A DNA stretch of 64,000 nt from the NCBI GenBank assembly GCA_951406725.2, contig OX597828.1:44516001-44580000 (forward strand). Reading direction: 5' to 3'. Positions 2,912-62,013 of this stretch are shown here, piece by piece. How positions within the stretch are numbered: the stretch's first letter is position 1; every line of letters begins with the position of its first letter. Origin of the DNA: Octopus vulgaris (Eukaryota). The notes beneath the pieces are model-generated. The model worked only from the letters and a program-made list of their open reading frames with translations, was not told the origin of the DNA and did not search any database. The translations under genes were made by a program, and so were the position numbers.

Positions 2912-3347
2912 ATTCTTTTACTCTTTTATACTTGTTTCAGTCATTTGACTGCGGCCATGCTGCAGCACCGCCTTTAATCGAGCAACTCGACCCCGGGACT
3001 TATTCTTTTTGTAAGCCCAGTACTTATTCTATCGGTCTCTTTTGCCGAACCGCTAAGTGACGGGGACATAAACACTCCAGCATCGGTTGTCAAGCAATGC
3101 TAGGGGGACAAGCACAGACACACAAACATACACGCACACACACACACACACACACATGTATATATATATATACATACATATATACGACGGGCTTCTTTCA
3201 GTTTCCGTCTACCAAATCCACTCACAAGGCTTCGGTCGGCCCGAGGCTATAGTAGAAGACACTTGCCCAAGGTGCCACGCAGTGGGACTGAACTAGGAAC
3301 CATGTGGTTGGTAAGCAAGCTACTTACCACACAGCCACTCCTGCACC
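2912..3347 (-). mobile_element. tRNA-derived SINE family A (internal TA/TG microsatellite, GTAAAAGA-type tail)
   Basis: Near-identical copies at about 5271-5710(+), 24937-25290(+), 33431-33840(+), 41305-41700(-), 44312-44720(-), 49401-49806(+), 61848-62260(+); head has A/B-box-like TGGCTGTGTGG and GGTTCAGTCCC. Confidence 0.8.
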
Positions 3348-3349
3348 TT

Positions 3350-5240
3350 GTCTTATCTACAATTTCCATTTGATTTTTATTTTAATGTTGATGTACTTGA
3401 CTCAACAGGTCTCCTCAAGCACAGCAGGTTGCCTTACGATCCAAGGTTAGCACAGCAGGCCATCCTGTGAGCCATGAACTCACTTCATTTGTCGGGCCTT
3501 CACAGTCACAGCATATCTCAGGGGTCTCGGTCTTCATCATTTCCTCTGTGAGGCCCTACGTGCCACTGGCACGGGTATCACAACTACAAAATCCATACGA
3601 TTTTTATTTTGATGTTGATGAACTTGACACAATAGGTCTCCTCAAGAGCAGCAGGCCGTCCTGCAAGCCATGAACTCACTTCATTTGTTGGGTCTTCGAA
3701 GTCACAGCATATCTCCAGAGGTCTTGGTCTTTCGTCATAGCCTCTCTGAGGCTCAATGTACGAAGGTCATGCTTGACCACCTCATCCGATGTCTTCCTGG
3801 GTCTACCTCTACCCCAGATTCCTTCAACAGTTTGGGAGTAGCACTTCTTCACACATCTCTCCTCATCCATCCGTAGTACATGACCATACCAACGCAATCG
3901 TTTCTCCTGCACGCTGCATCCGATGCTTCTTATGCCCAACATTTCTCTCAGGGCGCTTACACTCTGTTGTGCATGGACATTGACATTACACATCCAGCGG
4001 ATCATGCTAGCTTCATTTCTTTCAAGTCTACGCATGTCCTCCGCAGTCACAGCCCATGTTTCACTGCCGTGAAGCATGGCAGTTCGCACACATGCGTTGT
4101 ACAATCTACCTTTTACTCTGAGTAAGAGACCCTTTGTCGCCAGTAGGGGAAGAAGCATCCTAAACTTTGCCAAGGCTATTCTTATTCTAGTGGTAGCACT
4201 CTCTGAGCATCCACCCCAGCTACTAACTTGGTTACCTAGGTAGCAGAAACTATCAGCTACTTCTAGTTTCTTCCCCAGGAGTGTAATGGAATCTGTTTTC
4301 TGAGTATCAATGGTGTTTATTGCTCCTCTGCATCTGCTGTGATGAGTTTGCCTTCCTACTTACTAGAACTTTGGTCTTTGCTACATTGACTCTAAGGCCT
4401 TTTTATTCTAAACCTAGCTTCCACACACAAAATTTCTTCTCTAGTTCCGTTAGTGATTCTGCTACGAGGGCTAGGTCATCAGCGTAGAGGAGCTCTCAGG
4501 GACAACCTGTCTTAAATTCCTCTGTTATTGCCTGAAGGACTATGATGAATTGAAGGGGACTGAGGGATGAGCCTTGGTGGATGCCAACTTCTACCCGGAA
4601 TTCTTCACTGTACTCATTGCCAATCCTAACCTTACTAACAGCCTCTCTGTAAAGGGCCTGTACAATCTCCAGTTTCTGCATTGCCCACCAGATAAGGGAT
4701 CGGGGGACTCTGTCAAAGGCTTTCTCCAAGTCCACAAAAACTATGTAGAGGGGTTTATCTTTGGCTAGGTATTTCCCCTGCAGTTGTCGAACCATGAATA
4801 TGGCATCAATGGTGCTTCTACCAGGCACAAAACCGAACTGCATCTCATCTAAGCAGACTCTCTCCCTGATGAGATGGGCTATGACCCTCTCTGTGACCTT
4901 CATTACCTGATCCAGCAGTTTGATACCCCTGTAGTTATTTCTATCTAGAGCATCACCTTTACCCTTGTAGCAGTTGACTATGGTACTGCTACGCCAGTCA
5001 TTGGGTATGACTCCATCATGAACTACCTGGTTTACAATGCGGGTGACTAGGCTGTAGCCCACACCACCAGATGTTTTAAGCTTCTCAGCAGTGATTCCTG
5101 ATGGGCCGGGGGCTTTTCCTGGCTTCATACCCTTAATTTCTAATTGTCTTATCTACTAGGGAGCTATCTATACGGATAGCTGGTCCTTCTACCGGGTCAA
5201 CATTTGGCAGGCTCTCCTCCTCCCATTCATTCTCCATATG
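3350..5240 (-). mobile_element. Degenerate RTE-clade LINE fragment (reverse transcriptase plus C-terminus)
   Basis: ORF 4496-5128 (KAPGPSG, YKGKGD, NYRGI, QFGF, DLEKAFD, QGS), LYADDL at about 4471-4488, ORF 3676-4173 ([17 protein letters not shown]); stops and deletions present. Confidence 0.92.
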
Positions 5241-16500: not shown

Positions 16501-19500
16501 TTTATTGCCATTTATTTATGAGTATTATAAATTTTACAGGTAAAATATTTTTCTGAGAACGAATTATGATTTATAAACATTGCCACTATGGGAAATTGTT
16601 GCTCTGCTTTACGAGTTTTCACTTTACAAGCGGTCTCTGGGAACCAAATTAACTCGTATATCAAGGCACCACTGTCCTTGTGTTTCAAACATAGTTTTTT
16701 TTTAGGGTTAAAATATGAACTGGACAGGACCTTATGTTACCAGGGAACAGCTGTAGTAAAGAAACACCGTTTTGACCCTGTGCTTGAGGAGATCCATTGA
16801 GTCAAGGACACCAACATCAAAAATCAATGGAAACTGCAGTTGTGATCCCTGTGCCAGTGGCACATAAAAAGCACTATCCGAATGTGGCCGATGCCAGCGC
16901 CGCCTAGACTGGCTTCTGTGCCGGTGGCACGTAAAAAGCACCAATCCGATCGTGGCCATTGCCAGCCTTGCCTGGCACCTGTGTCGGTGGCACGTAAAAA
17001 GCACCTACTACACTCACGGAGTGGTTGGCATTAGGAAGGGCATCCAGCTGTAGAAACACTACCAGATCAGACTGGGGCCTGGTGCAGCCTTCTGGCTTCC
17101 CAGATCCCCGGTCGAACCGTCCAACCCATGCTAGCATGGAGAACGGATGTTAAATGATGATGATGATATAGATCTTTGCTTTCTTTAATAGCTTTGTTAA
17201 AAGTTTAACACCATTCCATGCAAATATCTAATAGGTGTCACTGGATGGGTGAGTTTGCCAATCCATATCATGAGCTCTTAACACATTGCTGGAATCTTAG
17301 GTGCACCATCATGATATACAGCCAGCATATTTTGTGCACTTTTTAACCTGCTGCAGCCAATGCTGTTTCCTGTTCTGGCTGTAGTCAATTTCTTCCTTGT
17401 CAGTGAGAAAGAGATGAACAGCAAAATCAAAGAAAGAGGTTAGAGAAAGGAAATATTGACCACAGTACAGGACCGGTGTTTGATTTATTGACCTTGGAAA
17501 GATTAAAAGAAAAGTTGTCCTTTGTGGAATTTGAACTCAGAGCTGAGAGAATTGCAGTTATTACTGCAAAGCAGTCTATCTGGCTTTAATGCCTCTGCTA
17601 ATTACCAGTTGGGATAACATAAGAAAATAATTAACTTTTGTATCATTTAAATAATTTGTTGTTTTTTTCTTGCAAAAGCTGCAAAGGGGTCGTTTTTGAT
17701 AAAAGGTGGCAGTGGAATACAAAGCATTAAGATCTACTGATCTAATTCTTCCAGATAATCCATTTGTTGATCTGACCTTACTGTTTAATCCACTGGCCTA
17801 ACGTGTCTTTCTCTATCTTCTCATATTACTTTAGGTGCCACAAATAATTCTGAATGACCACCACAATAAAGGGAAGCTGTGTAGAATATTCTGTGCCCAA
17901 CCACGCAGAATTGCTGCCTTATCTATTGCCGAGAGAGTTTCTGCTGAGCGAGGGGAAAAGATTGGCCAGATTGTCGGCTATCAGATACGTCTTGAAAGCA
18001 AGTAAGAACCACAAACTGGATGTACATTTTTACACTGCAGGCTCAAAAGACACATAAATACATATTCTTATATGTGTATTCTTTTGTTCTTTCAGTCCTA
18101 AGGCTGTGGCCATGCTGGGGCACTGCCAGTGAAAATATTAACGTTGCCGATAGGATTCGAACCTATGCAGGGAGATCCCAATGGATTTCTAATCCATCAC
18201 CTTAACCACTCGGCCGTGTTCATCATCATCGTCATCATAATTATACTTTGTTTTTCCATTCTTGTATGGATTTTATGTATCTTTTCCAGAATTGTGTCTT
18301 GGAATTAGTGATATCTTTTGTGAGATTTAGCTTCATGAGGTCACCTTTCACTACTTCTTATGTCTATCCCTCTTTTGCTTCTGCAGGTTCCTACTGTTTC
18401 CATTACTTTACACTATCATCCTTCATATGTGTCATATGTCTGTACCTTATTACCCACAAGGGGCTAAACATAAAGGGGACAAACAAGGACAGACATAGGT
18501 ATTAAGTCGATTAATAAAGGCGGCGAGCTGGCAGAAACGTTAGCACACCGGGCGAAATGCTTAGCGGTATTTCGTCTGCGTTACGTTGTGAGTTCAAATT
18601 CCGCCGAGGTCGACTTTGCCTTTCATCCTTTCGGGGTCGATAAATAAAGTACCAGTTACGCACTGGGGTCGATGTAATCAACTTAATACCTATGTCTGTC
18701 CTTGTTTGTCCCCTCTGTGTTTAGCCCCTTGTGGGTAATAAAGAAATAGGTATTAAGTCGATTACGTCGACCCCAGTGCGTAACTGGTACTTAATTTATC
18801 GACCCCAAAAGGATGAAAGGCAAAGTCGACCTCGGCGGAATTTGAACTCACAATGTATGTCTGTACCAGTGCAGTCTTCTAATTCGTCTCAAACCCCTAT
18901 TTTCTCTCATCTCCTTCATGCTTCAGCTTCCAGATGCATTAACATTACAAATTCAGCTTGTATGTTTGTCTTATTTTCTCCAACTTTCTCACATCCTCTG
19001 CATTCAATATATCCATGTTTTTCTGCTCTGCAACTTCACACTTTATACACAAGCACCATACAATCTACCCTCGAATAGGATAGATAATCCCTGTGTTGCT
19101 AGCAGAGATAATAGCGCTTTGAACTTATCCCGCCCATTTTTATTCTAGTTACAATACTTTCACAACATAGGTGTAGGAGTGGCCGTGTGGTAAGTAGCTT
19201 GCTTATGAACTACATGGTTCTGGGTTCAGTCCCACCGCGTGGCAACTTGGGCAGGTGTCTTCTACTATAGCCTTGCTCTAGTGGTTAGAGCAGTGGATTC
19301 GCGGTCGAGGGATTGCGGGTTCGAGTCTCAGACCAGACGATGTGTGTATTTATGAGCAAAACACCTAAGCTCCACGCGGCTCCGGCAGAAGGTAATGGCG
19401 AACTTCTGCTGACTCTTTCGCCACAACTTTCTCTCACTCTTTCCTCCTGCATCTTGCAGCTCACCTGCGACGGACCAGCATCCCGTCCAGGTGGGGAACC

Positions 19501-21034: not shown

Positions 21035-24000
21035 GGGTTGGACAAAATAATGGAAACACCTAGTATCATAGCATCATAATTTTGAAATATCTATAAAACC
21101 GTCAAAAGCTTGTTTATTTTTATGTTTTTTTTATTTATCATTAGTGTTGCTTAATATGTTTTGCTAAAATTGCTGTTTCTTTTCAGATATCATCAGAAAA
21201 AGTTAATTAAAATTCATTAAAATGACAGATCTATCAGACTTTCAAAGCGGTTGAATTGTTGGTGTATCAAGAAGTACTGTCTTGAAAGTAATAACAGCCT
21301 TTGAGTAAGAGGGAAAAACCTCCTCGTCGAAACTAAACTCCGGAAGAAAACCTAAGCTTTCAGTTAGGGACTGTCGGGCTCTTATGCGAATTGTTAGAAA
21401 GGCTCACAAACGTACAGCTCCCAAAATTACTGCAGGGTTTAATGACCACCTCATGAACCCAATTTCCACAAAAACTGTTTGCCAGGAGCTGCACAAAGCT
21501 GGATTTCACAGGAGGGCTGCAGTAAGAAAACTACTACTTTCAAAAGCAAACGTTGCAAAGCATTTAGAGTGGAGTAAAAACCTACAGAATTGGTCCCTAG
21601 AGCAGTGGAAGAATGCTACTTTATCAGACGAGTCATCCTTTACCTTATTTTCGACCACCAGCCAAGTATACGTGTGGAGATAGCCAAAAGAAGCATTTGA
21701 CCTAGACTGCCTTCCAACTGTTAAAATGGAGAAGGGTCTGTGATGATCAGGGGCTATATCTTGGAAATCTGCTAGCCCAATGGTTTCCCTTCATGGCAGA
21801 ATTAATAGCCAGGTCTATTTAAGCATTTTATCTGATCAAATCCATCATATGGTTACGGAACTGTTTCCGGAGGGAAACACAATCTTTCAGGATGATAATG
21901 CACCAATTCACACAGCTAAAGTTGTTACTGAATGGCACGAGGAACGTTCTAGTGAACATCTTATCTGGCCACCACAGTCCCCAAATCTCATTATCATCGG
22001 ACATTTATGGTGCATTTTAGAAAAAACAAGTAAGGAGTCAATATTCTCCACCATCATCACTACAAGAACTGGAGACTGTTTTAGCTGAAGAATGGAAAAA
22101 ATTCCTTTGGAAACAATTCAAACTTTGTACGAGTCCATACCTCATAGAATTCAAGCAGTAATTACTACCAAAGGTGGTGATCCTATCCCATATTAAAATA
22201 AATTTGTTTGAAATTTTAAGGTGTTTCCATTATTTTGTCCAACCCCTGTATATTGATGTAAAGCATGGTTTATTTGTGATCAGAGTTGTTTGTAAACCGA
22301 GGTACTACTGTATATGTTATTTGAAATGACTTGATTTGGCTTCTAGCTGTTTAGTTCCTTATGGAGACGCAAATGCTACGATTACCAAGATGTATTGTTA
22401 CAGAAGTAAGTGAAGCACTAAATAAAAAAAAAAAAGAGGTACTTTTTGAAAAGTCACCCGTGGAGATGCATCTGTACCTACATCACATCTGTACAGCATC
22501 TCATTTGCAAGGTACTGGTGCATGATGGGTCAAAAAGACCGTAGTGCTTCAGAATAAAGAGTCTTGTAACCACATGTGAATCATTGGCGATATTTTTTTT
22601 TTTTTCTGTTTTCCTTTTTTCTTGGACTTTTATCTGCCTTCTGTTTCTGAAGAAGAGCTTTGCTCGAAACATAAAACCACCTTGCTTTCCTTCCCTGAGC
22701 ATCTACTAATACTTTGCATGTACCACATCCTCATGTTGTTTTTCCTCTTGTGTTCTTTGTTTTTTAGGGAATTTACTATATATATATATAGAGTGGTTGT
22801 ATACTGTCAACTTAACGTGACAGTCCCGTAAGGGAATTACACCACCGCTGTTTAGCCCTAAGAAGCAGTGGTGGTGTAATTCCCTTACGGGACTGTCACG
22901 TTAAGTTGACAGTATACAACCACTCTATTGCTCCACCACCGTACATATCTCTATGGGATATTTAGAAAATTAATATTTCTGATATATATATATATATACC
23001 CTAGCTGTCATCGTTCCTCACCCCAACCCTCCCCACTGGTGCTTCCCTATATTACCTGCACCCCCAAAAAGCACCATCCGAACGTGACCGATGCCAGCGC
23101 CGCCTTGGCTGGCTTCCGTGCCGCTGGCACGTTAAAAGCTCGAACCGATCGTGATCGATGCCAGACCCACCCTGGCACCTGTGCAGGTGGCACGTAAAAA
23201 GCACCCACTCCACTCGCGGAGTGGTTGGCGTTAGGAAGGGCATCCAGCCGTAGAAACTCTGCCAGATCAGACTGGAGCCTGGAGCAGCCCCTGGCTTCCC
23301 AGACCCCGGTCAAACCGTCCAACCCGTGCTAGCGCAGAAAACGGACGTTAAACGATGATGATGATGATGATGATATATATATACATGCATACATACATAT
23401 GAGGGTGTACTGAAAAGTTCCTGGCTTTGAGGGTATCATGAAGGACCACTGCAATAAGTGTGTGAATCTGAGGGAAATATTTTGAATAAAATCATAATCA
23501 ACTGATCCTCCTGTATTTTCTTTTACCCAAAGCCAGGGACTTTTTGGCACTCCTTTGTATCTATCTATTTACCTGTTTGTCTGTCTTCTGACGTGCAAAC
23601 CTGTCTATCTGTCTATCTAGCCAGGACCTTTTCAGCACGCCCTTGTATACACACTCACATATGTTCGTTTATTTTATGTTCATTTTTTTCCATGTTAGCA
23701 TGGGTTAGATGAGTATATACTATTGGGACATTGTTTTACAGCCAATTGCTCTTCTTATCACTAATCCTTAACTACTTTCGTTATGAGTGATTTTTGCATT
23801 ACATTGATCTTTGAAAGCATGGCACTCCCAGAGGATTTGTTGGCTGAGAAATGTCATATTTGTGATTCAGAGTGTAAATATTCACACATAAAAGACATGC
23901 GCATAACCGGACATAAGAGGCTTCCTGCAGTTTCCATCTGTCAATTTTATCACAAAGCATTCTGCAGCACCAAGAGTGTTGGTGCTGTAGAACACACTTG

Positions 24001-30672: not shown

Positions 30673-33601
30673 GTTATTATTATTATTATTATTATTGTTA
30701 TCATTATTATTATTATTATTGTTATCATTATTATTATTATTATTATTATTTTCATTGAGTGAGAGAGCAGTGCATGCCATCAGAGTGACTCTGGGGTAAA
30801 ATATACGAAGCCCAGTATACCCATCATGACTGCCCGTCTGATAAGGGTACACTAGGCACATGCATCACAACCATATGTGCGCGACATGGTGATCTCATAT
30901 CAAGATAAACAGCACATGACCTTGCAGGTGGGGCCCCATTCTTCTGGTCGAATATGGATAGTTTATCCTGTTCATGCTATATTATTAGTATTATCCTGCA
31001 TTTGAGAATGTCAATGTGTGTTTTTATGTCAAGTTATATACAAAAACAATTTAACATTGAGGTGAATGACTACTCAAAACTTCTTAGAATAGGACAGGTT
31101 TAATAAACTTTTAGTTTCGGCTTACTCATCTTTGTCAGACAATCTAACGACAGGTAAGCATGCCAACACTTCAAAGTCACTATGAAACTTTTGCATGTAA
31201 TTGTTTAATGTATGTATCATGCTGGCATGGAAAACTAATGTTAAACAATGACAATATGTATAAATGTATATTCTTTGATAAGTCTGTTACCATGCTGGAG
31301 CACCATTGTCATCATTTAACATCCATTTTCTATGCTGGCATGGATTAAATCTATCTATCTGTCAGTTTGTCTATGTATGTAGTTGCCATGATTGATCATT
31401 AAATCCACAAGTTTTTTTTTTTATTCTCTCTCTACTTATTTCTGTGTTCCTTTCTGTTGAAGAGCATAGGCTTGAAATGTAAAAGACTTTCTCACTTTCT
31501 CGAACATCAAACTAATACACCTGTTTGTTGTTTATACACCTGTCTTCGTCTTTTGTTTTTCTGTAAATTTCAACTATATGTATGTGTGTGTATATATGGC
31601 TCCCTTGTTGGTGGCATATAAAAAGTATCCACTACTTTCCCGGAATGGTTGATTTTAGGAAGGGCATCGAGCTGTAGAAAGATTGCTAAATCAGATTGGA
31701 GCCTGGTGCAGCCTCCTGGCTTGCTAGTCCCCAGTCAAACCGTCAAACCCATGCCAGCATGGAAAACGGACGTTAAGTGATGATGATGATGATATATATA
31801 ACCTAGCCAAAACCAAAGTTCTAATAAGTAGGAAGGTAGACCAATCACAAACGCCTTCAGGTAGATGGCCCTGCTCGATCTGTAGAAAAGGTGTAGGTAG
31901 AAACTCTATAAGATGCACCAAGTGTAAGCTATGGACACATAAGAGGTGCAGCAATGTCAAAGGAAGGCTAACTAGGAAGATGGTTTTTGTAAGTGGCAGA
32001 TGCTCAGGAACAATAAACACTTAAAATGCTCTGAGACCAACTTCCGTCACTTTCCAGGGAGAAAAACTAGAAGTAGTTGATAGTTTCCGCTACCTAGGTG
32101 ACCAAGTCAGTAGCGGGTGTGCTGAAAGTATAACCGCTAGAGTAAGAATAGCCTGGGCAAAGTTTAGAGAGCTCTTACCCCTGCTGGTGACAAAAGGCCT
32201 CTCGCTCAAAGTAAAAGGCAGACTGTATGATGCATGTGTACGTACAGCCATGCTACATGGTAGTGAAACTTGGGCTGTGACTGCTGAGGATTTGCGTAAG
32301 CTCGCAAGAAATGAAGCTAGTATGCTCCGATGGATGTGTAACGTCAGTGTTCATAATCGACAGAGTGTAAGTACCTTGAGAGAAAAGTTGAACCTAAGAA
32401 GCATCAGTTGTTGTGTGCAAGAGAGACGTTTGCGCTGGTATGGTCATGTGATGAGAATGGCTGAAGATAGCTGTGTGCGAAAGTGCCACACCCTGGCAGT
32501 TGAGAGGACCTGTGGAAGAGGTAGACCCAGGAAAACCTGGGTCGAGGTGGTGAAGCACGACCTTCGAACTTTAGGTCTCACCAAGGAAATGACCAGTGAC
32601 CGAGACCTTTGGAAGTATGCTGTGCGTGAGAAAACCCGGCAAGGCCAGTGAGAACAGTCAAAATCAAAATCAAACCAATATCAGAAAGCAGAACCAAATT
32701 GAGGTCGATCAACATCAGGGCCCCGTGCAGGTGACACGTAAAAGCACCATCCGTTCATGGCCGTTTGCCAGCCCTGTCTGGACCCCGTGTCGGTGGCACG
32801 TAAAAGCACCATCCATTCGTGTTCGTTGCCAGCCTGGCCTGGCCCCTGTGCCGGTGACACGTAAAAGCACCATCCGTTCGTGGCCGTTTGCCAGCTCTGT
32901 CTGGCCCCCGTGCCGGTGACACGTAAAAGCACCATCCGTTCGTGGCCGTTTTCCAGCCCTGTCTGGCCCCCGTGTTGGTGGCACGTAAAAGCACCATCCG
33001 TTCGTGTCCGTTGCCAGCCTCGCCTGGCCCCCATGCCGGTGACACGTAAAAGCACCATCCGTTTCGTGGCCGTTTGCCAGCTCTGTCTGGCCCCCGTGTT
33101 GGTGGCACGTAAAAGCACCATCCGTTCATGTCCATTGCCAGCTTCGCCTGGCCACGTGCCGGTGACACGTAAAAGCACCATCCGTTCGTGGCCGTTTGCC
33201 AGCTCTGTTTGGCACCTGTGCGGGTGGCACGTAAAAAGCACCCACTACACTCACGGAGTGGTTGGCGTTAGGAAGGGCATCCAGCCGTAGAAACACTGCC
33301 AGATCTGACTAGGCCTGATGAAGCCTTCCAACTTCACAGACCTCAGTTGAACCGTCCAACCCATGCTAGCATGGAGAACGGACGCTAAATGATGATGATG
33401 ATGATGATGATATATATATATATATATATAGGCGCAGGAGTGGCTGTGTAGTAAGTAGCTTGCTAACCAACCACATGGTTCCGGGTTCAGTCCCATTGCG
33501 TGGCATTTTGGGCATGTGTCTTCTGCTATAGCCCCGGGCCGACCAATGCCTTGTGAGTGGATTTGGTAGACGGAAACTGAAAGAAGCCTGTCGTATATAT
33601 G

Positions 33602-37700: not shown

Positions 37701-40700
37701 TTTGGAGTTTCAGATACAACCACATTATTCAACTTATTCTTTTATTAGACAAGTGATATTTGAGGGAGATTTGGTTGCTCTGTCCAGAAGGTGAAGCGAT
37801 CATGTAACCTCCTGCATTGATTCAGCGTGATAGAGTTTGCACAGAAAGTAAAACTGTGAAAGGAAATAATTTGAACTTCAGTTAAACTAACTATTAGTTA
37901 CTGGCTGTGTGATTAAGAAGATTTGCTTGTCAACCACTTGGGTTTTGATCTTGTGTGACACCCCTATCAAGTACCTTCTGCTATAGCACCAAACCAACCA
38001 AATCCTTGTGAGTTGATTTGGTAGAGGGAAACAGAAAGAAGTCTTTGTGTGTATGTATTAAAAGCGATATGGATTTCATTTTTTATATTTTTATTTTTCC
38101 AGGTGCTATTCTTGTTTTTCTTCCTGGCTATGAAGATATTGTTGGTGTGAAAGAAAAAATTTTGGAAGAGAAAAGATTTGAGAGTATCAGGTAGGTAACA
38201 TACCATCCTGCCCCCTAATCTCTGTCTCATCACTCGCTCTCTCCCATTTGAAAACAATATATATCATCGTCATCGTTTAGTGTCCGTTTTCCATTCTGGC
38301 ATGGGTTGGACGATTTGCTGAGAACTGGCTAGCCAATAGGCTGCATCAGGCTCCAAACCACATGTTAAGAGTAAAAGATGTTTTATATGACATATTCTAT
38401 CAGTGTCCGAAGTTTGAAAGTGTTTAGTTACAAAAATTTTTTTAAAAATCTGTTGGTCAAAAGGTAAAGATCCGGATAGTATTACATATAGCACAGCACA
38501 TACCACAACACATAGCATATAACATATGTAATGCAATTTTTAAAACTAACAATTATAGTTACCATACTTTAATTTCTGTGGTGGAAATTAATTTTGGTGT
38601 CATATCTGTTGTAAACTTACCCTCCAGGATTAAATATAAAAAATCATAGGATATTATGTTATATTGTAAATTATATTGCATTACATATATGCTATGTTCA
38701 GTAGTTGATAAAGAGATAAATGAATTATAAATGAATTACAACCCTATGACCCCACTCTGCTCCATGCGATTCTTAGAAGTTGTAGTCTATTCTTAGCTAC
38801 AATAGCGACAACATGAATTTTTTCCATCTTCTTGCTCTGTTGAAATATTGGGGAAAATTATATTAAAATTTTCTACTTGTTAGAATTCCATTTATATATT
38901 TGTGCAGCTGAAGATGGTCCTGCATTGAAATTGATGTAATGATTGCATTGTTCAGTTAAATAAAGCCACTTGAAATGGGCATACAGCATTACTACTTGAT
39001 ATCCTGTTGCTTAATTTAATTTTATATCTATATTCTTTTCTGTTGAAGAGCAAAGACTTGAAACATCAAACACTTTTCCATTTTTCCTGAACATCAAACT
39101 GAACATCAGGCTCCAAACTGATCTAGCAAAGTTTCTATATCTGGATGCCCTTCCTAACGCTAACCACTCCAAGAGTGTAGTGGGTGCTTTTTACATGCCA
39201 CTGGCACTGGAGCCAGTCAGAGGGCATTGGCATCAACCATGTTCAGATTGTGCTTTTTACATACCACCAGCACGGTAGCCAGTCTGTGTGTGTATGTATG
39301 GTTCAAAATTGTACAAAAAGCAAAAACAAAAGACAGAGACAAGAGAAGGCAGGTGGCTCGTAAAAAGCACCATCCGACCGTGGCCGTTTGCCAGCCTCGT
39401 CTGGCACCTGTGCCGGTGGCACGTAAAAAGCACCATCCGACCGTGGCCGTTTGCCAGCCTCGTCTGGCACCTGTGCCGGTGGCATGTAAAAATCACCCAC
39501 TACACTCACGGAGTGGTTGGCGTTAGGAAGGGCATCCAGCCATAGAAACATTGCGAGATCAGACTGGGCCTGGTGCAGCCTTCTGGCTTCCCAGACCCCA
39601 GTTGAACCATCCAACCCATGCTAGCATAGCATGGAAAGCAAACGCTAAATGATGATGATGATGATGATGATAATTATCCTGTTTATTTGTCGTTTGTCAT
39701 TAACCATTTCCATGTTCATTTTGATTTTTCACATATATATATTTACGACCTATTTTCAGATATATTCTTTTTATGTTACACTCCTCTATGCAGTCACTGG
39801 ATCAGAAACGAGTTTTTAAATCATCTCCACCAGGAGTGAGGAAAATTGTACGTAACCTATTATTTCTATATGTAACCTTTTGACATTTAAACTGGCCACA
39901 TTCAGCTCAAATATTCTAGTTGTTTTTATGTTCAGGCCAGCTAGCCCTGCCCTCACACACTTTCCCTACAATATCATTTTGAAAATATGCAATCACATCA
40001 ATCAAATACTCTTTTACTTGTTTCAGTCATTTGACTGCGGCCATGCTGGAGCACTGCTTTAGTCGAGCAAATCGACGCCATGACTTATTCTTTGCAAGCC
40101 CAGCACTCATTCTATCGGTCTCCCTTGCCGAAATGCTAAGTTACGGGGACGTAAACACACCAGCATTGGTTGTCAATCGATGTTTTGGGGGATAAACACA
40201 GACACACAAATACACACATCATCATCATCATCATCATCATCGTTTAACGTCCGTTTTCCGTGCTAGCACGGGTTGGACGGTTTCGACCGGGGTCTGGGGA
40301 GCTCGGGACTGCCCCAGGCTCCAGTCTAGTCTGGCAGTGTTTCTACAGCTGGATGCCCTTCCTAACGCCAACCACTCCGCGAGTGTAGTGGGTGTTTTTT
40401 ACGTGCCACCTGCACAGGTGCCATATACATATATACGACGGGCTTCTTTCAGTTTCCGTCTACCAAATCCTATCGCAAGGCTTTGGTCGGCCCGAGGCTA
40501 TAGTAGAAGACACTTGCCCAAGGTGCCACACAGTGGGACTGAACCCCTAACCATGTGGTTGGTAAGCAAGCTACTTACACACAGCCGCTCCTGCACCTAT
40601 TATGTGACACTTATAACACCTAGGTTTCCCAAGCAGTCACCCATCTAAGTACTAACTAGGCTCGACGTTGCTTAACTTTGGTGATCGGACGAGAACCGGT

Positions 40701-43700
40701 GCTTTCAACGTGATATTGCCGTAAGCAAATCTTGAATCTTTGAGATAATCCATGATTAATCCAAAACAATGTGAACAAATAAGCATTACTTTTTTTGAAA
40801 GAATAATCTGAATGCTCAAGGGAGAAGATAACTTTAACCCTTTAGTATTTATACCGGCCATATCCGGCCAAAATAGTTAATCTGTTTTATGCTCAAACTG
40901 ACCAGATCCAGGCCCTCACACCTACCCTACAATGTTATTCTACATTAAGTAATTACACCATCAAGATCTTGAAGATATGAGATAATGCATGATTAATTCA
41001 AATCAATGGGAATCAATAAGCATTATGTTTGATAGAATAATCTGAACACTAAAGCTCTTTTCTTTTTCCTGAACAAATTTTGTCAATTGTTATTTTGCAT
41101 GCAAGAGGAGATAACTCCTTAAGAAGGAACAGATTCAAAGATTATTGAATTATGTAGTTGACAGTGGTACTGTGGCAGTAAATTTGGCCACACTTCTTCA
41201 TCCAGAAGGCCATTCGTTGGTTGTACAGGCAGTTGTTAACCAGTGTTATATTCAGTTATTGGTATTTTGATGATGCTTCCTTTATTCACTTATCCATTTC
41301 TTATTACTCTTTTACTTGTTTCAGTCATTTGACTGCGGCCATGCTGGAGCACCGCCTTTAGTCGATCGAGCAAATCGACCCCGGGGACTTATTCTTTGTA
41401 AGCCCAGTACTTATTCTATCGGTCTCTTTTTGCCGAACCGCTAAGTGACGGGGACGTAAACACACCAGCATCGGTTGTCAAGCAATGCTAGGGGGACAAA
41501 CACACACACATACACACATATATATAAACATATATACGACAGGCTTCTTTCAGTTTCCGTCTACCAAATCCACTCACAAGGCATTGGTCGGCCCGGGGCT
41601 ATAGCAGAAAACACTTGCCCAAGATGCCACACAGTGGGACTGAACCCGGAGCCATGTGGTTGGTTAGCAAGCTTCTTACCACACAGCCACTCCTGCGCCT
41701 ATTATTATTTTATTTTAATTTTTTTGACATTTATGCATGTTTTTATTTATTTATTCCTCAGATTCTCTCAACAAACATTGCTGAAACAAGTCTCACCATT
41801 AACGATGTTGTCTATGTAATTGACTCAGGGAAAATGAAAGAGGTTAGCATCCTTCTCCTCCTCCTTCTCCTTCTCTTCCTCCTTATCCTTCTCCTCCTCT
41901 TTGCTTGCTTGTTTTGTTTATATAACTTAATATTATTAATTGTGGGGCCTCATCGAGGCAAGGGACAAGGTGGTGGTTCTCCAAATGTTGGGTCTCACGG
42001 AGGCAATGACGAGTGATTAAGACCTTTGGCAGTTTGCTGTGCTTGCAAAGACTCATTGAGCCAAGTGAAATCTTCGCTGTGGCCGTTACTGGCGTCATGT
42101 AAACGGTACCTATGAAATCATTGTTGTGGCCATTGCTGGTGTCATACATTGGCACCTGTGCCAGTGGCACTTAAAAAGCACCCATTACACTCTTGCTGCG
42201 GTTGGCATTGAGAAGGGCATCCAGCCATAGAAACCATGCCAAATCAGACTGGAACCTGGCACAGCTCTCCAGCTTGCCACTTTCCATCAAACCATCTAAC
42301 CCATGCCAGCATGGACAGTGGACGTTAAATGACAATGATGATGATAATAACACATGTACCATATGATATGAAATGACGCACATTCATCGTCAACATATTG
42401 TCCTTCTACTTATCTTGTTGGCATGGATTTTACTGGAGCTTGTGCTGGTGGCATGTAAAAAATCCAATTCGAGCGTGGTCATTGCCAGTGCCGCTGGACT
42501 GGCTCCTGTGCAGGTGGCACATAAAAAGCACCATTTGAGCATGGCCGTTGCCAATACCGCCCGACTGGCCCTCGTGCTGGTGGCACGTAAAAGCACCCAC
42601 TACATTCTCGGAGTGGTTGGCATTAGGAAAGGCATCAGGCTGTAGAAACACTGCCAGATCAGATTGGAGCCTGGTGCAGCCATCTGGTTCGCCAGACCTC
42701 AGTCAAATTGTCCAACCCATGCTAGCATGGAAAGCGGACATTAAACAATGATGATGATGAAGATGATATAGCCTCCTACAGATCAGACAACCATTTCTTG
42801 CTTAAACAACTATTTTGATATGGTTTTGGTACAGCAGGATGTTCTTCCAAATGCCAACCCCTTTAATCTTGAAATGGCAGACTTCATGAGAGAACAGTGG
42901 ACGTCATCAATTGATGTTTTTCAAACTTTTACATAGATACAATTATAATTTTGGCACTTATTTAAAGTGAAAATAAGCATAAAATTTACTCATCAGAAAA
43001 AGAGAGTTTTTTTGTTTTTTTTTTATGTTTATGCATTTGTTTTGCAAGATTTTTAAACAACATCACAGTTTTCCAAAGTAAAGTTATGTTATGATGGTCA
43101 TTCTTAAGCAACATGTTGATTTTGTTTTTTGCCCCCTTGGCATGCACTCTCATGCAAACCTTCCACCATAACCACCAAAGTATACTGAGTGCATTTGTTT
43201 TTCTTTTTTTTTTTTTTTCATTCTACCAGCATTAGAGAGATTGTCAAGGCCCTTGGTAAAACTCAAGTATCTTTTCAACCCTGTATTGTCTTTGTTGGAT
43301 TTGTCCTTGCCATTCCCTCTCCTCCACTGTCGGAAAAAACAAAAGAGAATCTAATTTAAGCTTGTCTTTATTTTCCAGAAATCCTTTGATGCATTTTGTT
43401 CTGTGACCATGTTAAAAACTCATTGGGTTTCCAAAGCAAATGCTTTACAGAGAAAGGGCCGGTAGGTATCATCAATTTACCATTTTTATTTGTTCACGGT
43501 GTCTGCTTTCTGGTCTCTGTTGCTGAAGAAGAGATGAACACTCTGAAATGAATGCATCCAGCAGTCTGGTTAGGGTGTTCCGTGATCTGACTCAGTGTGC
43601 TCACCCCTATTTGTATACAGTGAGAAATTTTCTGTGTGACAAAACAGATTCAGATATGCCTCAAGTATATTTCAACTGGCAACAAATTTGTATTTGTTCA

Positions 43701-46700
43701 CATCACTGTTTGGTGTTGTCACCCCGTATTTTACTTACAGTGAGCTGCTGAATAGGGCAACTAGTCACTGAGCAGTACTGGGAATATCATAAGAGGGACC
43801 TGTCTCTCATCACTCTGCAGTATCTGTTGCTGAAGAGTAGATAACTGCTATGAAATGCATGCATCCAGCTTTTAGGGGAGGTTGTGGACCGATTCAGTGT
43901 ATTTACACCTATTTTTCTTCAACAAGAAATTCTCTTTATGACAAAATACAGTGACTGGCTTTCTTATATGGGTTCAAATACACCTGAAGCATATTTGAAC
44001 TGGTAACAAGTTTGTATTTTCATTTGTGTCCTCCGTCCTTTGTTTTATTCAGCATATGGATACGGTACTCTTATATCCATCTGCTTAAGAAGTTAGTTTC
44101 TCAACCAAGTAATTCTAGATTTGATTTCTATGTGTGGCATTTCCAGCAAGTGTCCCCCACTGTACTTTCCTCTTAGCCAATGCCTTGTGTTTGGAATTTG
44201 GTAAATGGAAACTCTGTGGGTACCTGTTGTGTGTGTATTCCTTTTGCTGCCGACTTGCCTGAGAATTCTCCTGGTTCTGTGGTACGAACTTCTTGTTTTC
44301 AAGAGTCTTTACTCACTCTTTACTCTTTTACTTGTTTCTGTCATTTGATTGTGGCCATGCTGGAGCACCGCCTTTAGTCGAGCAATTCGACCCCAGGACT
44401 TATTCTTTGTAAGCCCAGTACTTATTCTATCGGTCTCTTTTGCCGAACCACTAAGTGACGGGGACGTAAACACACCAGCATCGGTTGTCAAGCGATGTTG
44501 GGGGCACAAACACAGACACACAAACACGCATACACACATATATATATACATATATACGACAGGCTTCTTTCAGTTTCCGTCTACCAAATCCACTCACAAG
44601 GCATTGGTCGGTCCGTGGCTATAGTAGAAGACACTTGCCCAAGATGCCGCGCAGTGGGACTGAACCCGGAACCATGTGGTTGGTTAGCAAGCTACTTACC
44701 ACACAGCCACTCCTGTGCCTATCAAAATTCATGTTAATTTTGTTCCAAAACTCCAGTTTAATAACGACAAAGTATTTTTCTAGGTTTCTCATTATTTTCC
44801 AAATTAACTGAAATAAATGCAAAATATTTCAATAGAAATTTGGCTTCAAAACAGTGATCTGGACTGAAACCTTCCCTCAAGAATTCATGTCAATTTATGT
44901 TTCAAACACTAGTTTAATAATAGCAAAGTTTTGTATTAAATTCTTAATTATTTTCTAAATTAATTGAAGCAGAGACTGTATTTCAACTGAAATATAATAA
45001 AAATGCTTAAGTTAGTTTATTGAGTATTATTTTCTAAATTAATTGAAGCAGAGACTGTATTTCAACTGAAATATAATAAAAATGCTTAAGTTAGTTTATT
45101 GAGTTGTAGCCATTCCCGGCACCAGAGTAAAATAAGTATCAGAACTTATATGATCAACTAAAACCCTATTAGTTATCTTCTGTCATGTTAATCTTCAGGA
45201 CAACTGGTAGCCAACATTTGGGTTAGTATTCTCTCATCTAATAGTCATCATCTCTTGTGGAGGCGCAATGGCCCAGTGGTTAGGGCAGTGGACTCGCGGT
45301 CATAGGATCGCGGTTTCGATTCCCAGACCGGGCGTTGTGAGTGTTTATTGAGCGAAAACACCTAAAGCTCCACGAGGCTCCGGCAGGGGATGGTGGCGAT
45401 CCCTGCTGTACTCTTTCACCACAACTTTCTCTCACTCTTACTTCCTGTTTCTGTTGTACCTGTATTTCAAAGGGGCCGGCCTTGTCACTCTCTGTGTCAC
45501 GCTGAATATCCCCGAGAACTACGTTAAGGGTGCACGTGTCTGTGGAGTGCTCAGCCACTTACACGTTAATTTCATGAGCAGGCTGTTCCGTTGATTCGGA
45601 TCAACCGGAACCCTCGTCGTCGTAACCGACGGAGTGCTTCCACGCTTCCACTAGTCATCATCTCTCTCATTGTCTCTTTCAGTGCCGGACGAGTTCAACC
45701 AGGTGTTTGTTATCACCTGTTCAGCAGAATACGTCACGACAACCTGGAACAATACCAAGTCCCGGAACTGTTACGGCTACCCCTACACGTAAGTGGGATT
45801 TTGTTCAGCTGTGTAGTCCTTGTCATTGTTATCATCTCATTACTTATTGTCATCATCACCACAGCTGCCTTTTGAGCGTTGGACCTCATGGAGGCATAGT
45901 GGCCAAGCTCCTTTTGAGTGTTGGGCCTCATGGAGGCAATGACCAAGACCATTTTTTGGCATTATGTCACGGTTGAGAAAAAGACTCATCAAGCCGAGCA
46001 AAATCACAGACGTGGCAGAGACCGGTGTCACGCAAATGGTACCGATGCCAGTGGCACATAAAAGCACCCATTACGCTCTTGGAGTGGTTGGCATTAGGAA
46101 GAGCATTCAGCCATAGAAAACCATGCCAAATCAAACTGGAGCCTGGCGCAGCCCTCCAACATATTAGCCCAGTCAAACCATCCAACCCATGCCAGCATGG
46201 ACAATGGATGTTAAATGATGATGGTAATATATACACACACCACTCACACAGTCTTCACTGTTTTATCCTCATTTTATTCTTTATTTCAGGAACTGTGTTT
46301 GCAAACCAAAATGATAGCACCTTCAAACACATCCATTGCTGACTTTCTCTCCAATGCTATCCAAGCACCCAGTTTCCTTATCATCCGCAATGCTCTCCAG
46401 CTGTTGAAGGTAACTACTGTACTGCTAGCAATATTTCTCTAACAACAATTGAAACCATGCTAAATCTTGTCTTCTTTTTTACTTTTTTTTTTGTTTTTCT
46501 ATTTGCCCCAGGTATAACTTGATAATGAGATCTGTCGGGGTACTCCTACTCCTTTGTGGATCACAGCGTTCAATTATACTATATTAATTTATTGGGCACA
46601 TAAAAAGCACCATCCGATCGTGGCCGTTTGCCAGCCTCGTCTGGCACCTGTGCCGGTGGCACGTAAAAAACACCTGGACTACACTCACGGAGTGTTTGGC

Positions 46701-51296: not shown

Positions 51297-51348
<52 letters not shown>

Positions 51349-52421
51349 GTTTAAATGTTTTGAACTTATAACCACCTATCTGCTTTGCTTTCCTTTTCTT
51401 TCTACATGCCACCCTAAAAACATCGCCATTCTCGCCCGTTTCTCTAAAGTTCAACCTTCGCATATTCCCTTTAATTCGATCTCCACCATTCACTATCATT
51501 TCTTCCCCTGGCTTACAGCGATGTCCATGAGCAGGCTAAGATTTCTCCCTTCTTTTTTCATACATACATACATACATTTGTCTACCGTTTAAATGTTTTG
51601 AACTTATAACCACCAATCTGCTTTGCTTTCCTTTTCTTTCTACATGCCACCCTAAAAACATCGCCATTCCCGCCCGTTTCTCTAAAGTTCAACCTTCGCA
51701 TATTCCCTTTAATTCGATCTCCACCATTCACTATCATTTCTTCCCCTGGCTTACAGCGATGTCCATGAGCAGGCTAAGATTTCTCCCTTCTTTTTCATAC
51801 ATACATACATACATTTGTCTACCGTTTAAATGTTTTGAACTTATAACCACCAATCTGCTTTGCTTTCCTTTTCTTTCTACATGCCACCCTAAAAACATCG
51901 CCATTCCCGCCCGTTTCTCTAAAGTTCAACCTTCGCATATTCCCGGTGCACCCGCCCTTGCCCACCCCCACCACCAATACCGGATATCTCTATATTTTTG
52001 TTCCATCTATACCGGATGTCGCTTCTCCCACCACCATTATAGGTGTCTACTCTTCGAACCCCCTCTTCAACACGCTATTTCACCATGCATTACCCTCTCT
52101 TGATATCCTACGTTCTACTTGCCTAGAACCTGTCATCATTTCTCTGAACCACCCCTCCCCACTGGTGCTCCCCTATATATTTCTGCATCCCCCCCCACAT
52201 AAAAAGCACCATCCGAACGTGGCCGATGCCAGACCCCTCTGGCACCTGTGCAGGTGGCACGTAAAAAACACCCACTACACTCGCGGAGTGGTTGGCGTTA
52301 GGAAGGGCATCCAGCTGTAGAAACACTGCCAGACAAGACTGGAGCCTGGGGCAGTCCCGAGCTCCCCAGACCCCGGTCGAAACCGTCCAACCCGTGCTAG
52401 CGCGGAAAACGGACGTTAAAC

Positions 52422-58119: not shown

Positions 58120-61100
58120 CTAACTTCTTCATGCATATGTGCAACTCATCCAACCCATGCCAGCATGGACAATGGATGTTAAATGATGATGATGGTGATG
58201 TGTATGTGTGTGTACATGTGTGTGTGTTTTACTGCTATAGAACTTTACTTTTGGTCTTGCTGCAAATATTAACCCATCAGTGAATTAAATAAATTAAAAT
58301 TAATTTTTTGGACAATTTACTTCATTAATTAACTCTTTAGAGAGGAAAGTAGATACAGTATGGCTAAACAATTATGAAGTTCTCTTTGCAATTACCAGAT
58401 TCAACCCCAGTGCTCAAAATCTCAAACATGAGCCTTTTTTTTTTTTATTTGAGTTGGCCCAAGGCTTGTTCGTGAAACTGGTAAATAAAACCTGTGCAGA
58501 AACCTGCTGTTTGTATTGTACCTGTTGAAGAAAAGGAGGGCAATATTGGGCTGGCCAAAGGGGGCAATGGATGTAAAAAAAACCCCAAAAAATCCCAGAA
58601 AAATAGGTTTTTTAGGTTAAGAATAATTATTCTTTTCAGTCATTTGACTGTGGCCATGCTTGAGCACTGCTTTTAGTTGAGCAAATTGACCCCAGAACTT
58701 ATTCTTTGTAAGCCTAGTTCTTATTCTATCAGTCTCTCTTGCCAAACCGCTAAGTGACAGGGACGTAAACACACCAGCATCAGTTGTCAAGCGATGTTGG
58801 GGGACAAACATATACATATATATATATATAGTAGAAGACACTTGCCCAAGGTGCCACGCAGTGGGACTGAACCCGGAACCATGTGGTTGGTAAGCAAGCT
58901 ACTTACCACACAGCCATTCCTGCGCCTAATTAGGTTAAGTTTTATTAGTGAAATCCAGTTGTTTTGAATTTGCTGTAGAATATGGTTTAAATTTGTGGTG
59001 ATGAGTTGGTGGGTGTGGTGCTAGGCATATGGCCTGGGTGCCAAGGGGGCGGCACCCTAAAATAAATTTGGGAACCGCTGATTTAAAGGAAGCTGGCAGA
59101 ATTGTTAAACCATTGGAAAAACTGCCCTGTGAGTATTTAGTCTGCCTATTTATGTTCTGAGTTCAGACTCTGTTGAGGTCAGCTTTGCCTTTCATCTTTT
59201 CGGGGTCAATAAAATGATGTACCCGTCTAGAACTCTGGAGATGACGTCGATTCTCCTTTAAATATTTGTCAATGAATTCCTCCACTCACAAGAATTTGGT
59301 TTACCTGGGGCCATAGAAGAAGACACTTGCCCAAGGTGCCAGGCAGTGGGGACTGAACCTGAAAACAAGTGGTCTGGAAGCAAAGTTCTTAACCACACAG
59401 CCATGTCTGCACCCATACAATAATTATTTAATATTATTCTGTTATTTAAGGCAGTGAACTGGCAAAAGTGTTAGCACTCCAGGCAAAATATTTCATGGCA
59501 TTTCGTCCATCCTTACATTCTGAGTTCAAGTTCTGCTGAGGGTGATTTTTGCCTTTCATCCCTTTCGGTGTCAATAAAGTAAGTCCCACTTGAACACCAT
59601 CGTCTATGTAATTGGTTTAAACCCCTCCCCCAAAATTGCTGGCTTTGTGCCAAAATTTGAAACCGATATTATTGTTTGTTTTTTTTTTCCATATAGATGA
59701 GAGAAAATGCCATGATTTCACCAGGCCCCATGATCTTGATAATGTCAGTGACAGTGGAGAGGAGGAGAATGAGGAAATGAAGAAATCTTCGCTTCGTCTC
59801 GATGAATGGTTATCTTTCCAAGTTGATTCTGAGGTAGGATTTCTTTTCCCCATACAATTTTGATGACTCCTTATGTTGTCCCATGTCCTGAGATTGACCT
59901 AAAACAGTCTAAACACACACATGCATACACACCATATTTATGAAGTCTAGTATCAAGTGTGGCTGTCAGTTTGAGCTAGAAAAGGGCAACATACTCACTG
60001 ACAGGACTTGAGCCACTGGACAACTCTACTAAATGCACTCTGAATGCCTGTTAAATAGCATATTTTGCTGGTGCTATCTGACTGCTGGGCAACTCTATTA
60101 CCAAACACACAAAGTGCCTGTTGAATAGCATATTTAACTAGTGCTGACTTCTGGACTACCTTATTATCAAATGTATACAGTGTGTCTGCTCAATAGCATA
60201 TTCTGCTTGTTCTGACTGCTAGACAACTGTATTACCAAATGCACACAGAATTCCTGTTAAATAGCATATTCTGCTTGTTCTGACTGTATTACCAAATGCA
60301 CACAAGAATTCCTGTTAAATAGCATATTCTGCTTGTTCTGACTGTATTACCAAATGCACACAGAATTCCTGTTAAATAGCATATTCTGCTTGTTCTGACT
60401 GTATTACCAAATGCACACAGAATTCCTGTTAAATAGCATATTCTGCTTGTTCTGACGACTAGACTGCTGTATTTCGAAATGCACACAGAATTCCTGTTAA
60501 ATAGCATATTCTGCTTGTTCTGATGACTAGACTGCTGTATTTCGAAATGCACACAGAATTCCTGTTAAATAGCATATTCTCCTTGTTCTGACTGTATTAC
60601 AGCTGTATTACCAAATACACTCAGAATTCCTGTTAAATAGCATATTCTGCTTGTTCTGACTGTATTACCAAATGCACACAGAATTCCTGTTAAATAGCAT
60701 ATTCTGCTTGTTCTGACTGTATTACCAAATGCACACAGAATTCCTGTTAAATAGCATATTCTGCTTGTTCTGACGACTAGACTGCTGTATTTCGAAATGC
60801 ACACAGAATTCCTGTTAAATAGCATATTCTCCTTGTTCTGACTGTATTACAGCTGTATTACCAAATACACTCAGAATTCCTGTTAAATAGCATATTCTGC
60901 TTGTTCTGACTGTATTACCAAATGCACACAGAATTCCTGTTAAATAGCATATTCTGCTTGTTCTGACTGTATTACCAAATGCACACAGAATTCCTGTTAA
61001 ATAGCATATTCTGCTTGTTCTGACGACTAGACTGCTGTATTTCGAAATGCACACAGAATTCCTGTTAAATAGCATATTCTGCTTGTTCTGACGACTAGAC

Positions 61101-62013
61101 TGCTGTATTTCGAAATGCACACAGAATTCCTGTTAAATAGCATATTCTCCTTGTTCTGACTGTATTACAGCTGTATTACCAAATACACTCAGAATTCCTG
61201 TTAAATAGCATATTCTAACAATGCTGACTGTTTGACAACTGTATTAGCAAACGCACACAAAGTGCCTGTTGAATAGCATATTCTGCTAGTGCTGACTGCT
61301 GGGAAGTTGGTATTACCAAATGCAATCAGAATACCTGTTGGATAACATACCTTGTGAATGCTCTTTGACTTCTCAGGAAACCCTTGTCATCATTATCGTT
61401 ATCATCAATTTGTAACTTATCCTCTAATGTTGTTGATTTTGCTTCCAGAGTTCTTCCTTAGTTCTTCAGTTGAGACAGAAGTGGTACAGTTTGTTTATCA
61501 GACGAATGCGAGCTCCGTCAAAACCTTGGACTCAAACTGATGAGGTAAATATTTCTGTAGATGTTGTTGTCGTCTTATTAACACATATTTACACAACCAC
61601 AGACTTGCCCACACTTCTCTCATTCTTCCTTTGTACCATTGAATGCTCACTACTTCTACATTTGTAACTGCATGTATATTATTTCTCTCACCCACCTCTG
61701 ACTAATGTATGTAGCCATGTATCTGCTAGACTACAAGAAACCTAGGGTCAATGTAATTGGTTAACATCCTCCCCCAAGATTTCAGGCCTTGTACAGAAAG
61801 TATTATTACTCTTATTTTTTGGATAAAGTGGTGATGAGTTTATCCAAAGGCGCAGGAGTGGCTGTGTGGTAAGTAGCTTGTTTACCAACCACATGGTTCC
61901 GGGTTCAGTCCCACTGCGTGTCACCTTGGGCAATTGTCTTCTACTATAGCCTCAAGCCGACCAAAGCCTTGTGAGTGGATTTGGTAGACGGAAACTGAAA
62001 GAAGTCCGTCATA

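Follow-up and report, generated by a model that had tools for sequence, protein, structure and literature searches.

The stretch of Octopus vulgaris DNA considered here is 64,000 nucleotides (nt) long (contig OX597828.1, positions 44,516,001 to 44,580,000; hereafter the window, numbered from its first letter) and contains exons of a gene that is, as far as its domains indicate, a YTHDC2-like RNA helicase, together with a repeat-derived insertion in one of its introns that carries two predicted hammerhead ribozymes. The R3H and ankyrin exons of the gene score above the Pfam cut-offs within the window, and its name is based on this order of domains, which we take to be that of YTHDC2. The intron splits helicase motif VI between QRKGR and AGRVQPG, and the first hammerhead fold starts 56 nt past the exon end at 43461, both as the original prediction had it.

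A structure descriptor run over both strands of the window finds exactly two matches, at 43517-43564 and 43826-43869, and both folds lie on the sense strand of the host intron. Among 100 dinucleotide shuffles there are no matches with the tight descriptor and three with the loose one, which bears out the two type I folds with intact cores that had been proposed at these places. Fold 1 comprises a 6 base pair (bp) stem I (CUGUUG/CAGCAG), CUGAAGA, stem II (AGAG/CUCU), GAAA, stem III (UG/CA) and UC. In fold 2, stem II is GUAG/CUAU, so that the two stems differ yet each pairs, and the stem III palindrome AUGCAUGCAU is present, again as first described; its stem I has only four pairs (43826-43829 with 43866-43869) and not six, the outer part having been lost to a 5-nt deletion. 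The stem II pair 43838-43850 reads U-A in this genome, C-G in the most distant orthologous sequence (organism E, see below) and G-C in most copies of the repeat family. Both folds have lost the canonical G10.1-C11.1 pair, which is described as highly conserved in hammerheads (PMC4209133), a loss that is the usual CpG decay of this repeat family. The Rfam hammerhead model, proposed as a check, gives no match at the gathering score or at E up to 10, and the identification as hammerheads therefore rests on the descriptor together with the family alignment. Folding models, which leave out tertiary contacts, place the two monomer folds 10-18 kcal/mol above the ensemble, compared with 5-7.5 kcal/mol for three other copies that rank among the best.

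The 5' edge of the insertion is approximate (about 43491) and becomes clear from 43506; its other end is the 3' end shared by the family, 155 nt past the second predicted cleavage site (Table 1). The original prediction took the 307-nt spacing as the repeat unit. As a site-to-site distance this figure stands, but the family unit is about 345-347 nt, and the stretch here is a unit that two deletions, of some 20 and 17 nt, have shortened. The diverged duplicate of about 150 nt noticed after each ribozyme is likewise present, and is explained by the position of the shared 3' end. A hairpin just before that end is a candidate signal for a borrowed reverse transcriptase, although this role is inferred. 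There is no open reading frame of at least 120 amino acids (aa) across the element, and no target-site duplication longer than 4 bp is evident by eye at 43491 and 44019, the insertion being old. Neither an inverted adjacent copy nor a tail is found at this locus.

Table 1. Features of the insertion and of its host gene, in window positions.
Feature	Position	Strand	Remarks
YTHDC2 exon, ending in the first half of helicase motif VI (QRKGR)	43379-43461	+	Covered by RNA-type contigs, runs X15 and X16
Host intron, GT..AG, 2,221 nt	43462-45682	+	In X15 and X16 contigs, 43461 is followed directly by 45683
Retrozyme insertion, about 1.5 units, 5'-truncated, tail-less	43491-44019	+	Ends at the shared 3' end of the family
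Predicted hammerhead fold 1, type I	43517-43564	+	Predicted site after 43558; 10.1-11.1 pair A-U; stem III palindrome broken at 43551
Stretch between predicted sites, 307 nt, 42% GC	43559-43865	+	Hypothetical monomer or circle
Predicted hammerhead fold 2, type I	43824-43869	+	Predicted site after 43865; 10.1-11.1 pair G-U; stem I 4 bp
Hairpin just 5' of the shared 3' end of the family	43967-44005	+	Fold -11.3 kcal/mol; inverted self-matches
Next YTHDC2 exon	45683-45788	+	Joined to 43461 in RNA-type contigs

The count of genome copies that had been proposed points to a large repeat family. A query with the element gives 1,280 first-look candidates, 40 of which were scored and yielded 48 matches at 67-82% identity; a ribozyme-free query gives 1,002 candidates, and 23 exact 30-mer matches lead to a low estimate of about 450 family units. 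We estimate that the genome holds several hundred to more than 1,000 dispersed copies of this repeat of about 345 nt. When the 94 segments reaching the shared 3' end are compared, 35 stop there, 36 have an extension of 7-47 nt and 23 continue into the next unit; as the queries ended at this point, reaching it is partly by design, but stopping there is not. A microsatellite follows 26 of 71 ends against a background of 13%, an inverted segment is seen in 10 of 73 family loci (72 places, as L008 duplicates L003), and the copies include 5' truncations and partial tandems in arrays of up to about 2.5 units. The same marks are described for the insertions of Penelope-like elements (PMC8557442). The element appears to have each sequence-level feature of non-LTR (long terminal repeat) retrozymes that could be tested, among them a tandem unit within 150-450 bp and a GC content below 50% (PMC7229834), and the retrozyme identity first suggested for it holds: a family with a tandem non-coding unit of about 345 nt, a type I hammerhead and Penelope-type insertion marks. 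Four other loci (L129, L132, L143 and L125) have two opposed arms per insertion, both ending at the shared 3' end. The least decayed tandem seen in the family (L004, G000:C25:26268201-26268741, minus strand) has units that are 87% alike, two intact cores and a double change of its own in stem II.

Several measures indicate that the family is old. We found no young copy, the best non-self match being 86%, and the two units here differ by 22.7%, which equals the mean between units of different loci; they have four non-majority letters in common against a background mean of three. One stem I pair covaries over the copies, being formed in 52 of 73 (42.7 on average after shuffling; 15 of 5,000 shuffles reach this value), which fits a functional ribozyme in the elements from which the copies derive. 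Among the 22 units from the ribozyme-free query, 22 core changes are seen where 30.9 are expected (p=0.06), and it appears that the cores have decayed roughly neutrally since insertion. The duplicate locus is still counted in the covariation and core-decay figures and was dropped from the later sets; 8 of the 30 loci of the ribozyme-free set were already in an earlier group and are counted there. In three unselected sets, all core letters are kept in 7/22, 17/43 and 1/9 other units, and the full fold in 1/22, 1/43 and 0/9.

These figures bear on how surprising the present pair is. With 12 core positions and 13 pairs scored, the two units here have one and two defects, and 9% of random unit pairs do as well (3% in the ribozyme-free set). 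Two whole tandem ribozymes are found at 7 of 57 unselected places, the duplicate being removed, from which we roughly put the number of such loci in the genome at tens to about 150; at least one pair this clean is accordingly expected by chance. The locus had moreover been picked for its looks. An exact pattern for stem II of fold 2 matched only this locus, although old copies would mostly escape a single exact pattern. The argument that cores conserved amid diverged flanks hint at activity is accordingly weak, given how many other units keep their cores and how many pairs match this one; what is left in its favour is the comparison with organism E, where fold 2 has a compensatory pair and the swapped ribozyme is intact, a point to which we return below.

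The stretch with the insertion, whole or in part, is present in 20 of the 24 sequencing runs listed, under five organism labels, and long close pieces spanning the exon and the element occur in organisms B, C, D and E. Paralogues swamped the comparison that gave these pieces (likeness 80), in which differences could not be placed, and the base-by-base analysis is that of organism E, where a single contig over 43400-43915, from two studies, has 38 differences and 8 gap letters. Of these differences 35 are listed, and 43512-43532 and 43616-43645, including the CUGAAGA of fold 1, are unreadable. The ribozyme regions changed at 4 of 76 readable positions compared with 30 of 316 in the flanks (p=0.17), and none of the 18 core positions that can be read is altered (p=0.17); in this comparison with organism E the ribozymes are not significantly better kept than their surroundings. 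Fold 1 loses its closing stem II pair (43533) in organism E, and over the folds there is one disruption against 3.3 expected (p=0.14).

Two RNA-type contigs, from runs X15 and X16 (4,586 and 3,653 nt, depth 18 and 16), join 43461 straight to the exon at 45683, and the severing of the intron that had been proposed is not supported as the main fate of this pre-mRNA. Contigs with a depth of 2.5 to 2.9 cover parts of the intron, though none of the RNA-type contigs extends over 43462-43608, and one of them (X15, depth 2.9) runs uncut across 43865. As the contigs may hold DNA and cannot show ends, they establish only that a spliced message exists. The joint of 43865 to 43559 is not seen in the two RNA-type contig sets, which cannot show its absence.

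From these observations we propose that the insertion is an old non-LTR retrozyme with a real hammerhead pair, now a neutral relic and probably inert, a reading that we regard as likely. In this model, reverse transcription of a multimeric or circular RNA would have begun at a fixed position some 155 nt past the cleavage site and run through about 1.5 units before stopping, and a borrowed Penelope-type enzyme is likely to have written the copy into the YTHDC2 intron. The family would then have died out, its copies decaying since, and cleavage by the predicted ribozymes would be too infrequent to rival splicing. Of the retrozyme copies in Xenopus, 42-44% are described as intronic (bioRxiv 10.64898/2026.07.22.740005), and the intronic position is therefore ordinary for the class; the same account has one of nine tested predicted dimers cleaving and eight not.

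Other results weigh against an inert relic of this kind. The pair 43838-43850 has changed on both sides between the window and organism E and is still paired (p=0.06, for any readable pair), and both of its states differ from the G-C of the family. In a strict full-fold test both units here pass, compared with 2 of 74 unselected other units. When the two copies are combined, the half made of core 2 and site 1 is free of defects both here, which is the case for 1.5% of random unit pairs, and in organism E, and the opposite half (core 1, site 2) lies 6-8.5 kcal/mol above the ensemble in the folding model, like the best family copies. No Penelope partner with sequence in common with the family was found in our comparisons. 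Finally, a spliced message is compatible with partial cleavage, and that X15 and X16 are RNA at all is a guess, as none of the runs listed is on record as RNA.

Some of these points would fit a co-opted split hammerhead, in which the core of copy 2 cuts the pre-mRNA at the site of copy 1, racing splicing and so tuning YTHDC2 output in the manner of the CPEB3 ribozyme, which is a precedent for the tuning of a host gene (PMC10274809). It is accepted that metazoan type I hammerheads fold as dimers, in which each core cuts the site of the other copy (PMC4209133). Here the 5' strand, core and stem II would come from copy 2, and the site (after 43558) and 3' strand from copy 1; the site would lie 97 nt past the splice donor, with a pairing that spans 260 nt. 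This half has a 6-bp stem I with 3- and 4-bp extensions, a 4-bp stem II and six straight stem III pairs, all kept both here and in organism E, the compensatory pair included. The clear defects are all on the opposite half (the stem I deletion of copy 2, 43551, and 43533 in organism E), which has three defects here in all and a fourth in organism E. In a neutral simulation the half is kept in organism E in 8% of cases, is kept with a compensatory pair in 0.6%, and any of four folds does so in 2%. However, the model was framed after organism E had been seen, and draws on one species pair; that this half is clean in the window follows largely from the way the locus was chosen, and 6 of 83 family units show double changes to a Watson-Crick pair that took a single event. 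The half lies 14-18 kcal/mol above the ensemble in linear RNA according to the folding model, it has G-U at 10.1-11.1, and the excess conservation of the ribozyme regions in organism E falls short of significance, as noted above. We therefore consider a split hammerhead of this kind unlikely.

A further alternative concerns origin, as the element would be equally inert today: the repeat might be the pseudo-LTR of an extinct autonomous Penelope element and not a self-standing non-autonomous retrozyme. The insertion marks are those of Penelope elements, Xenopus retrozymes are described as homologous to pseudo-LTRs (bioRxiv 10.64898/2026.07.22.740005), and the octopus genome has thousands of GIY-YIG candidates and Penelope-type elements with intact 781-aa frames. 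However, what lies upstream of the terminal unit is another unit (up to 2.5 turns) and not coding sequence, and a reverse transcriptase and GIY-YIG frame between pseudo-LTRs was not found at the element or at the family loci compared. Nineteen Penelope protein pieces find a match at only one of 72 family loci (L092, at a distance of about 1.3 kb) and at 0 of 18 further loci, and 30 fetched GIY-YIG loci, out of 148 matches, have no meaningful DNA in common with the unit. The ribozyme is also canonical in shape, with a 4-bp stem II and a 6-bp stem I, and not of the minimal Penelope type, and we find this origin unlikely as well. Least probable of all is a living retrozyme source that severs the intron by cutting at both sites, with release and circularisation of the 307-nt piece: both cores are intact, the circle would fold well (-87.4 kcal/mol, z=-3.6 against base shuffles) and its junction would rebuild the core 2/site 1 half, the cleanest, and mussel, coral and axolotl retrozymes are described as giving circles (PMC7229834), but with no young family copy and no second copy of the fold 2 stem II the locus is without detected offspring, stem I of fold 2 has 4 bp, fold 1 is damaged in organism E, and there are the spliced contigs and the one uncut intronic contig.

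Elsewhere in the genome, a young Penelope-type family (L049 and L054 on G000 C16, and many more places) has intact 781-aa reverse transcriptase and GIY-YIG frames with a CxxC linker, and a separate type I hammerhead, likewise complete, is found on the minus strand of L054 around position 3021. The window itself contains a 5S rRNA copy at 40608-40726 (minus strand, 97.5 bits, several substitutions) in another YTHDC2 intron, a tRNA-like match at 18150-18215 (minus strand, 36.1 bits) that is probably the head of a short interspersed nuclear element, and broken reverse-transcriptase frames of the long interspersed nuclear element type at 3676-5152 (minus strand) and 32025-32651 (plus strand), which are presumably RTE-like. 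A fragment at 21309-21683 (plus strand) resembles what we take to be a Tc1/mariner transposase. There is also a 68-nt array of about 20 copies at 60027-61339, and at 51345-51944 a tandem of a 238-nt unit, with 2.5 copies at 99% identity. Searches of the openly accessible literature on YTHDC2 intron ribozymes, cephalopod hammerheads and octopus Penelope elements and hammerheads gave no paper on the locus or the family.

Among known systems, the element is most readily compared with the metazoan non-LTR retrozymes, with which it has in common a canonical type I hammerhead, a short palindromic stem III, a non-coding unit of low GC content that is a few hundred bases long, numerous copies both dispersed and in tandem, and Penelope elements in the same genome. 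Units of 350-390 bp in mussel and of 330 and 350 bp in axolotl are given by Cervera and de la Pena (2020, PMC7229834). Unlike these, the family here appears extinct, with copies 75-87% alike, the arrays seen reach at most about 2.5 units, and cleavage and circles are hypothetical. The family also resembles the insertions of endonuclease-bearing Penelope-like elements as described in PMC8557442, in its 5' truncation, partial tandems, inverted adjacent copies, tails of 30-40 bp and microsatellite-rich landing sites, but the element itself has no reverse transcriptase or GIY-YIG frame and no partner with the same sequence was found. A recent account has retrozymes derived from Penelope elements as non-autonomous derivatives (bioRxiv 10.64898/2026.07.22.740005). 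As a relic, the insertion would add a further family to the molluscan retrozymes, and its Penelope-type insertion marks agree with the proposed helper.

It would also show that an intact-looking intronic hammerhead pair is not by itself evidence of function. Amniote intronic hammerheads are reportedly further host-conserved intronic ribozymes. Like the hepatitis delta virus-like ribozyme of CPEB3 (PMC10274809), the pair is a sense-strand self-cleaving motif, here predicted, in an intron of an RNA-regulating gene and is kept at the orthologous place in several species; unlike it, the pair is one of hundreds of repeat copies, has diverged by 7% from its most distant orthologue and has no significant excess of conservation. 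Should the swapped ribozyme prove active and under selection, it would offer a rare example of a gene-regulatory element derived from a retrozyme, with a germline RNA helicase gene as its host, and the split hammerhead would amount to an invertebrate counterpart of the CPEB3 switch, of retroelement origin.

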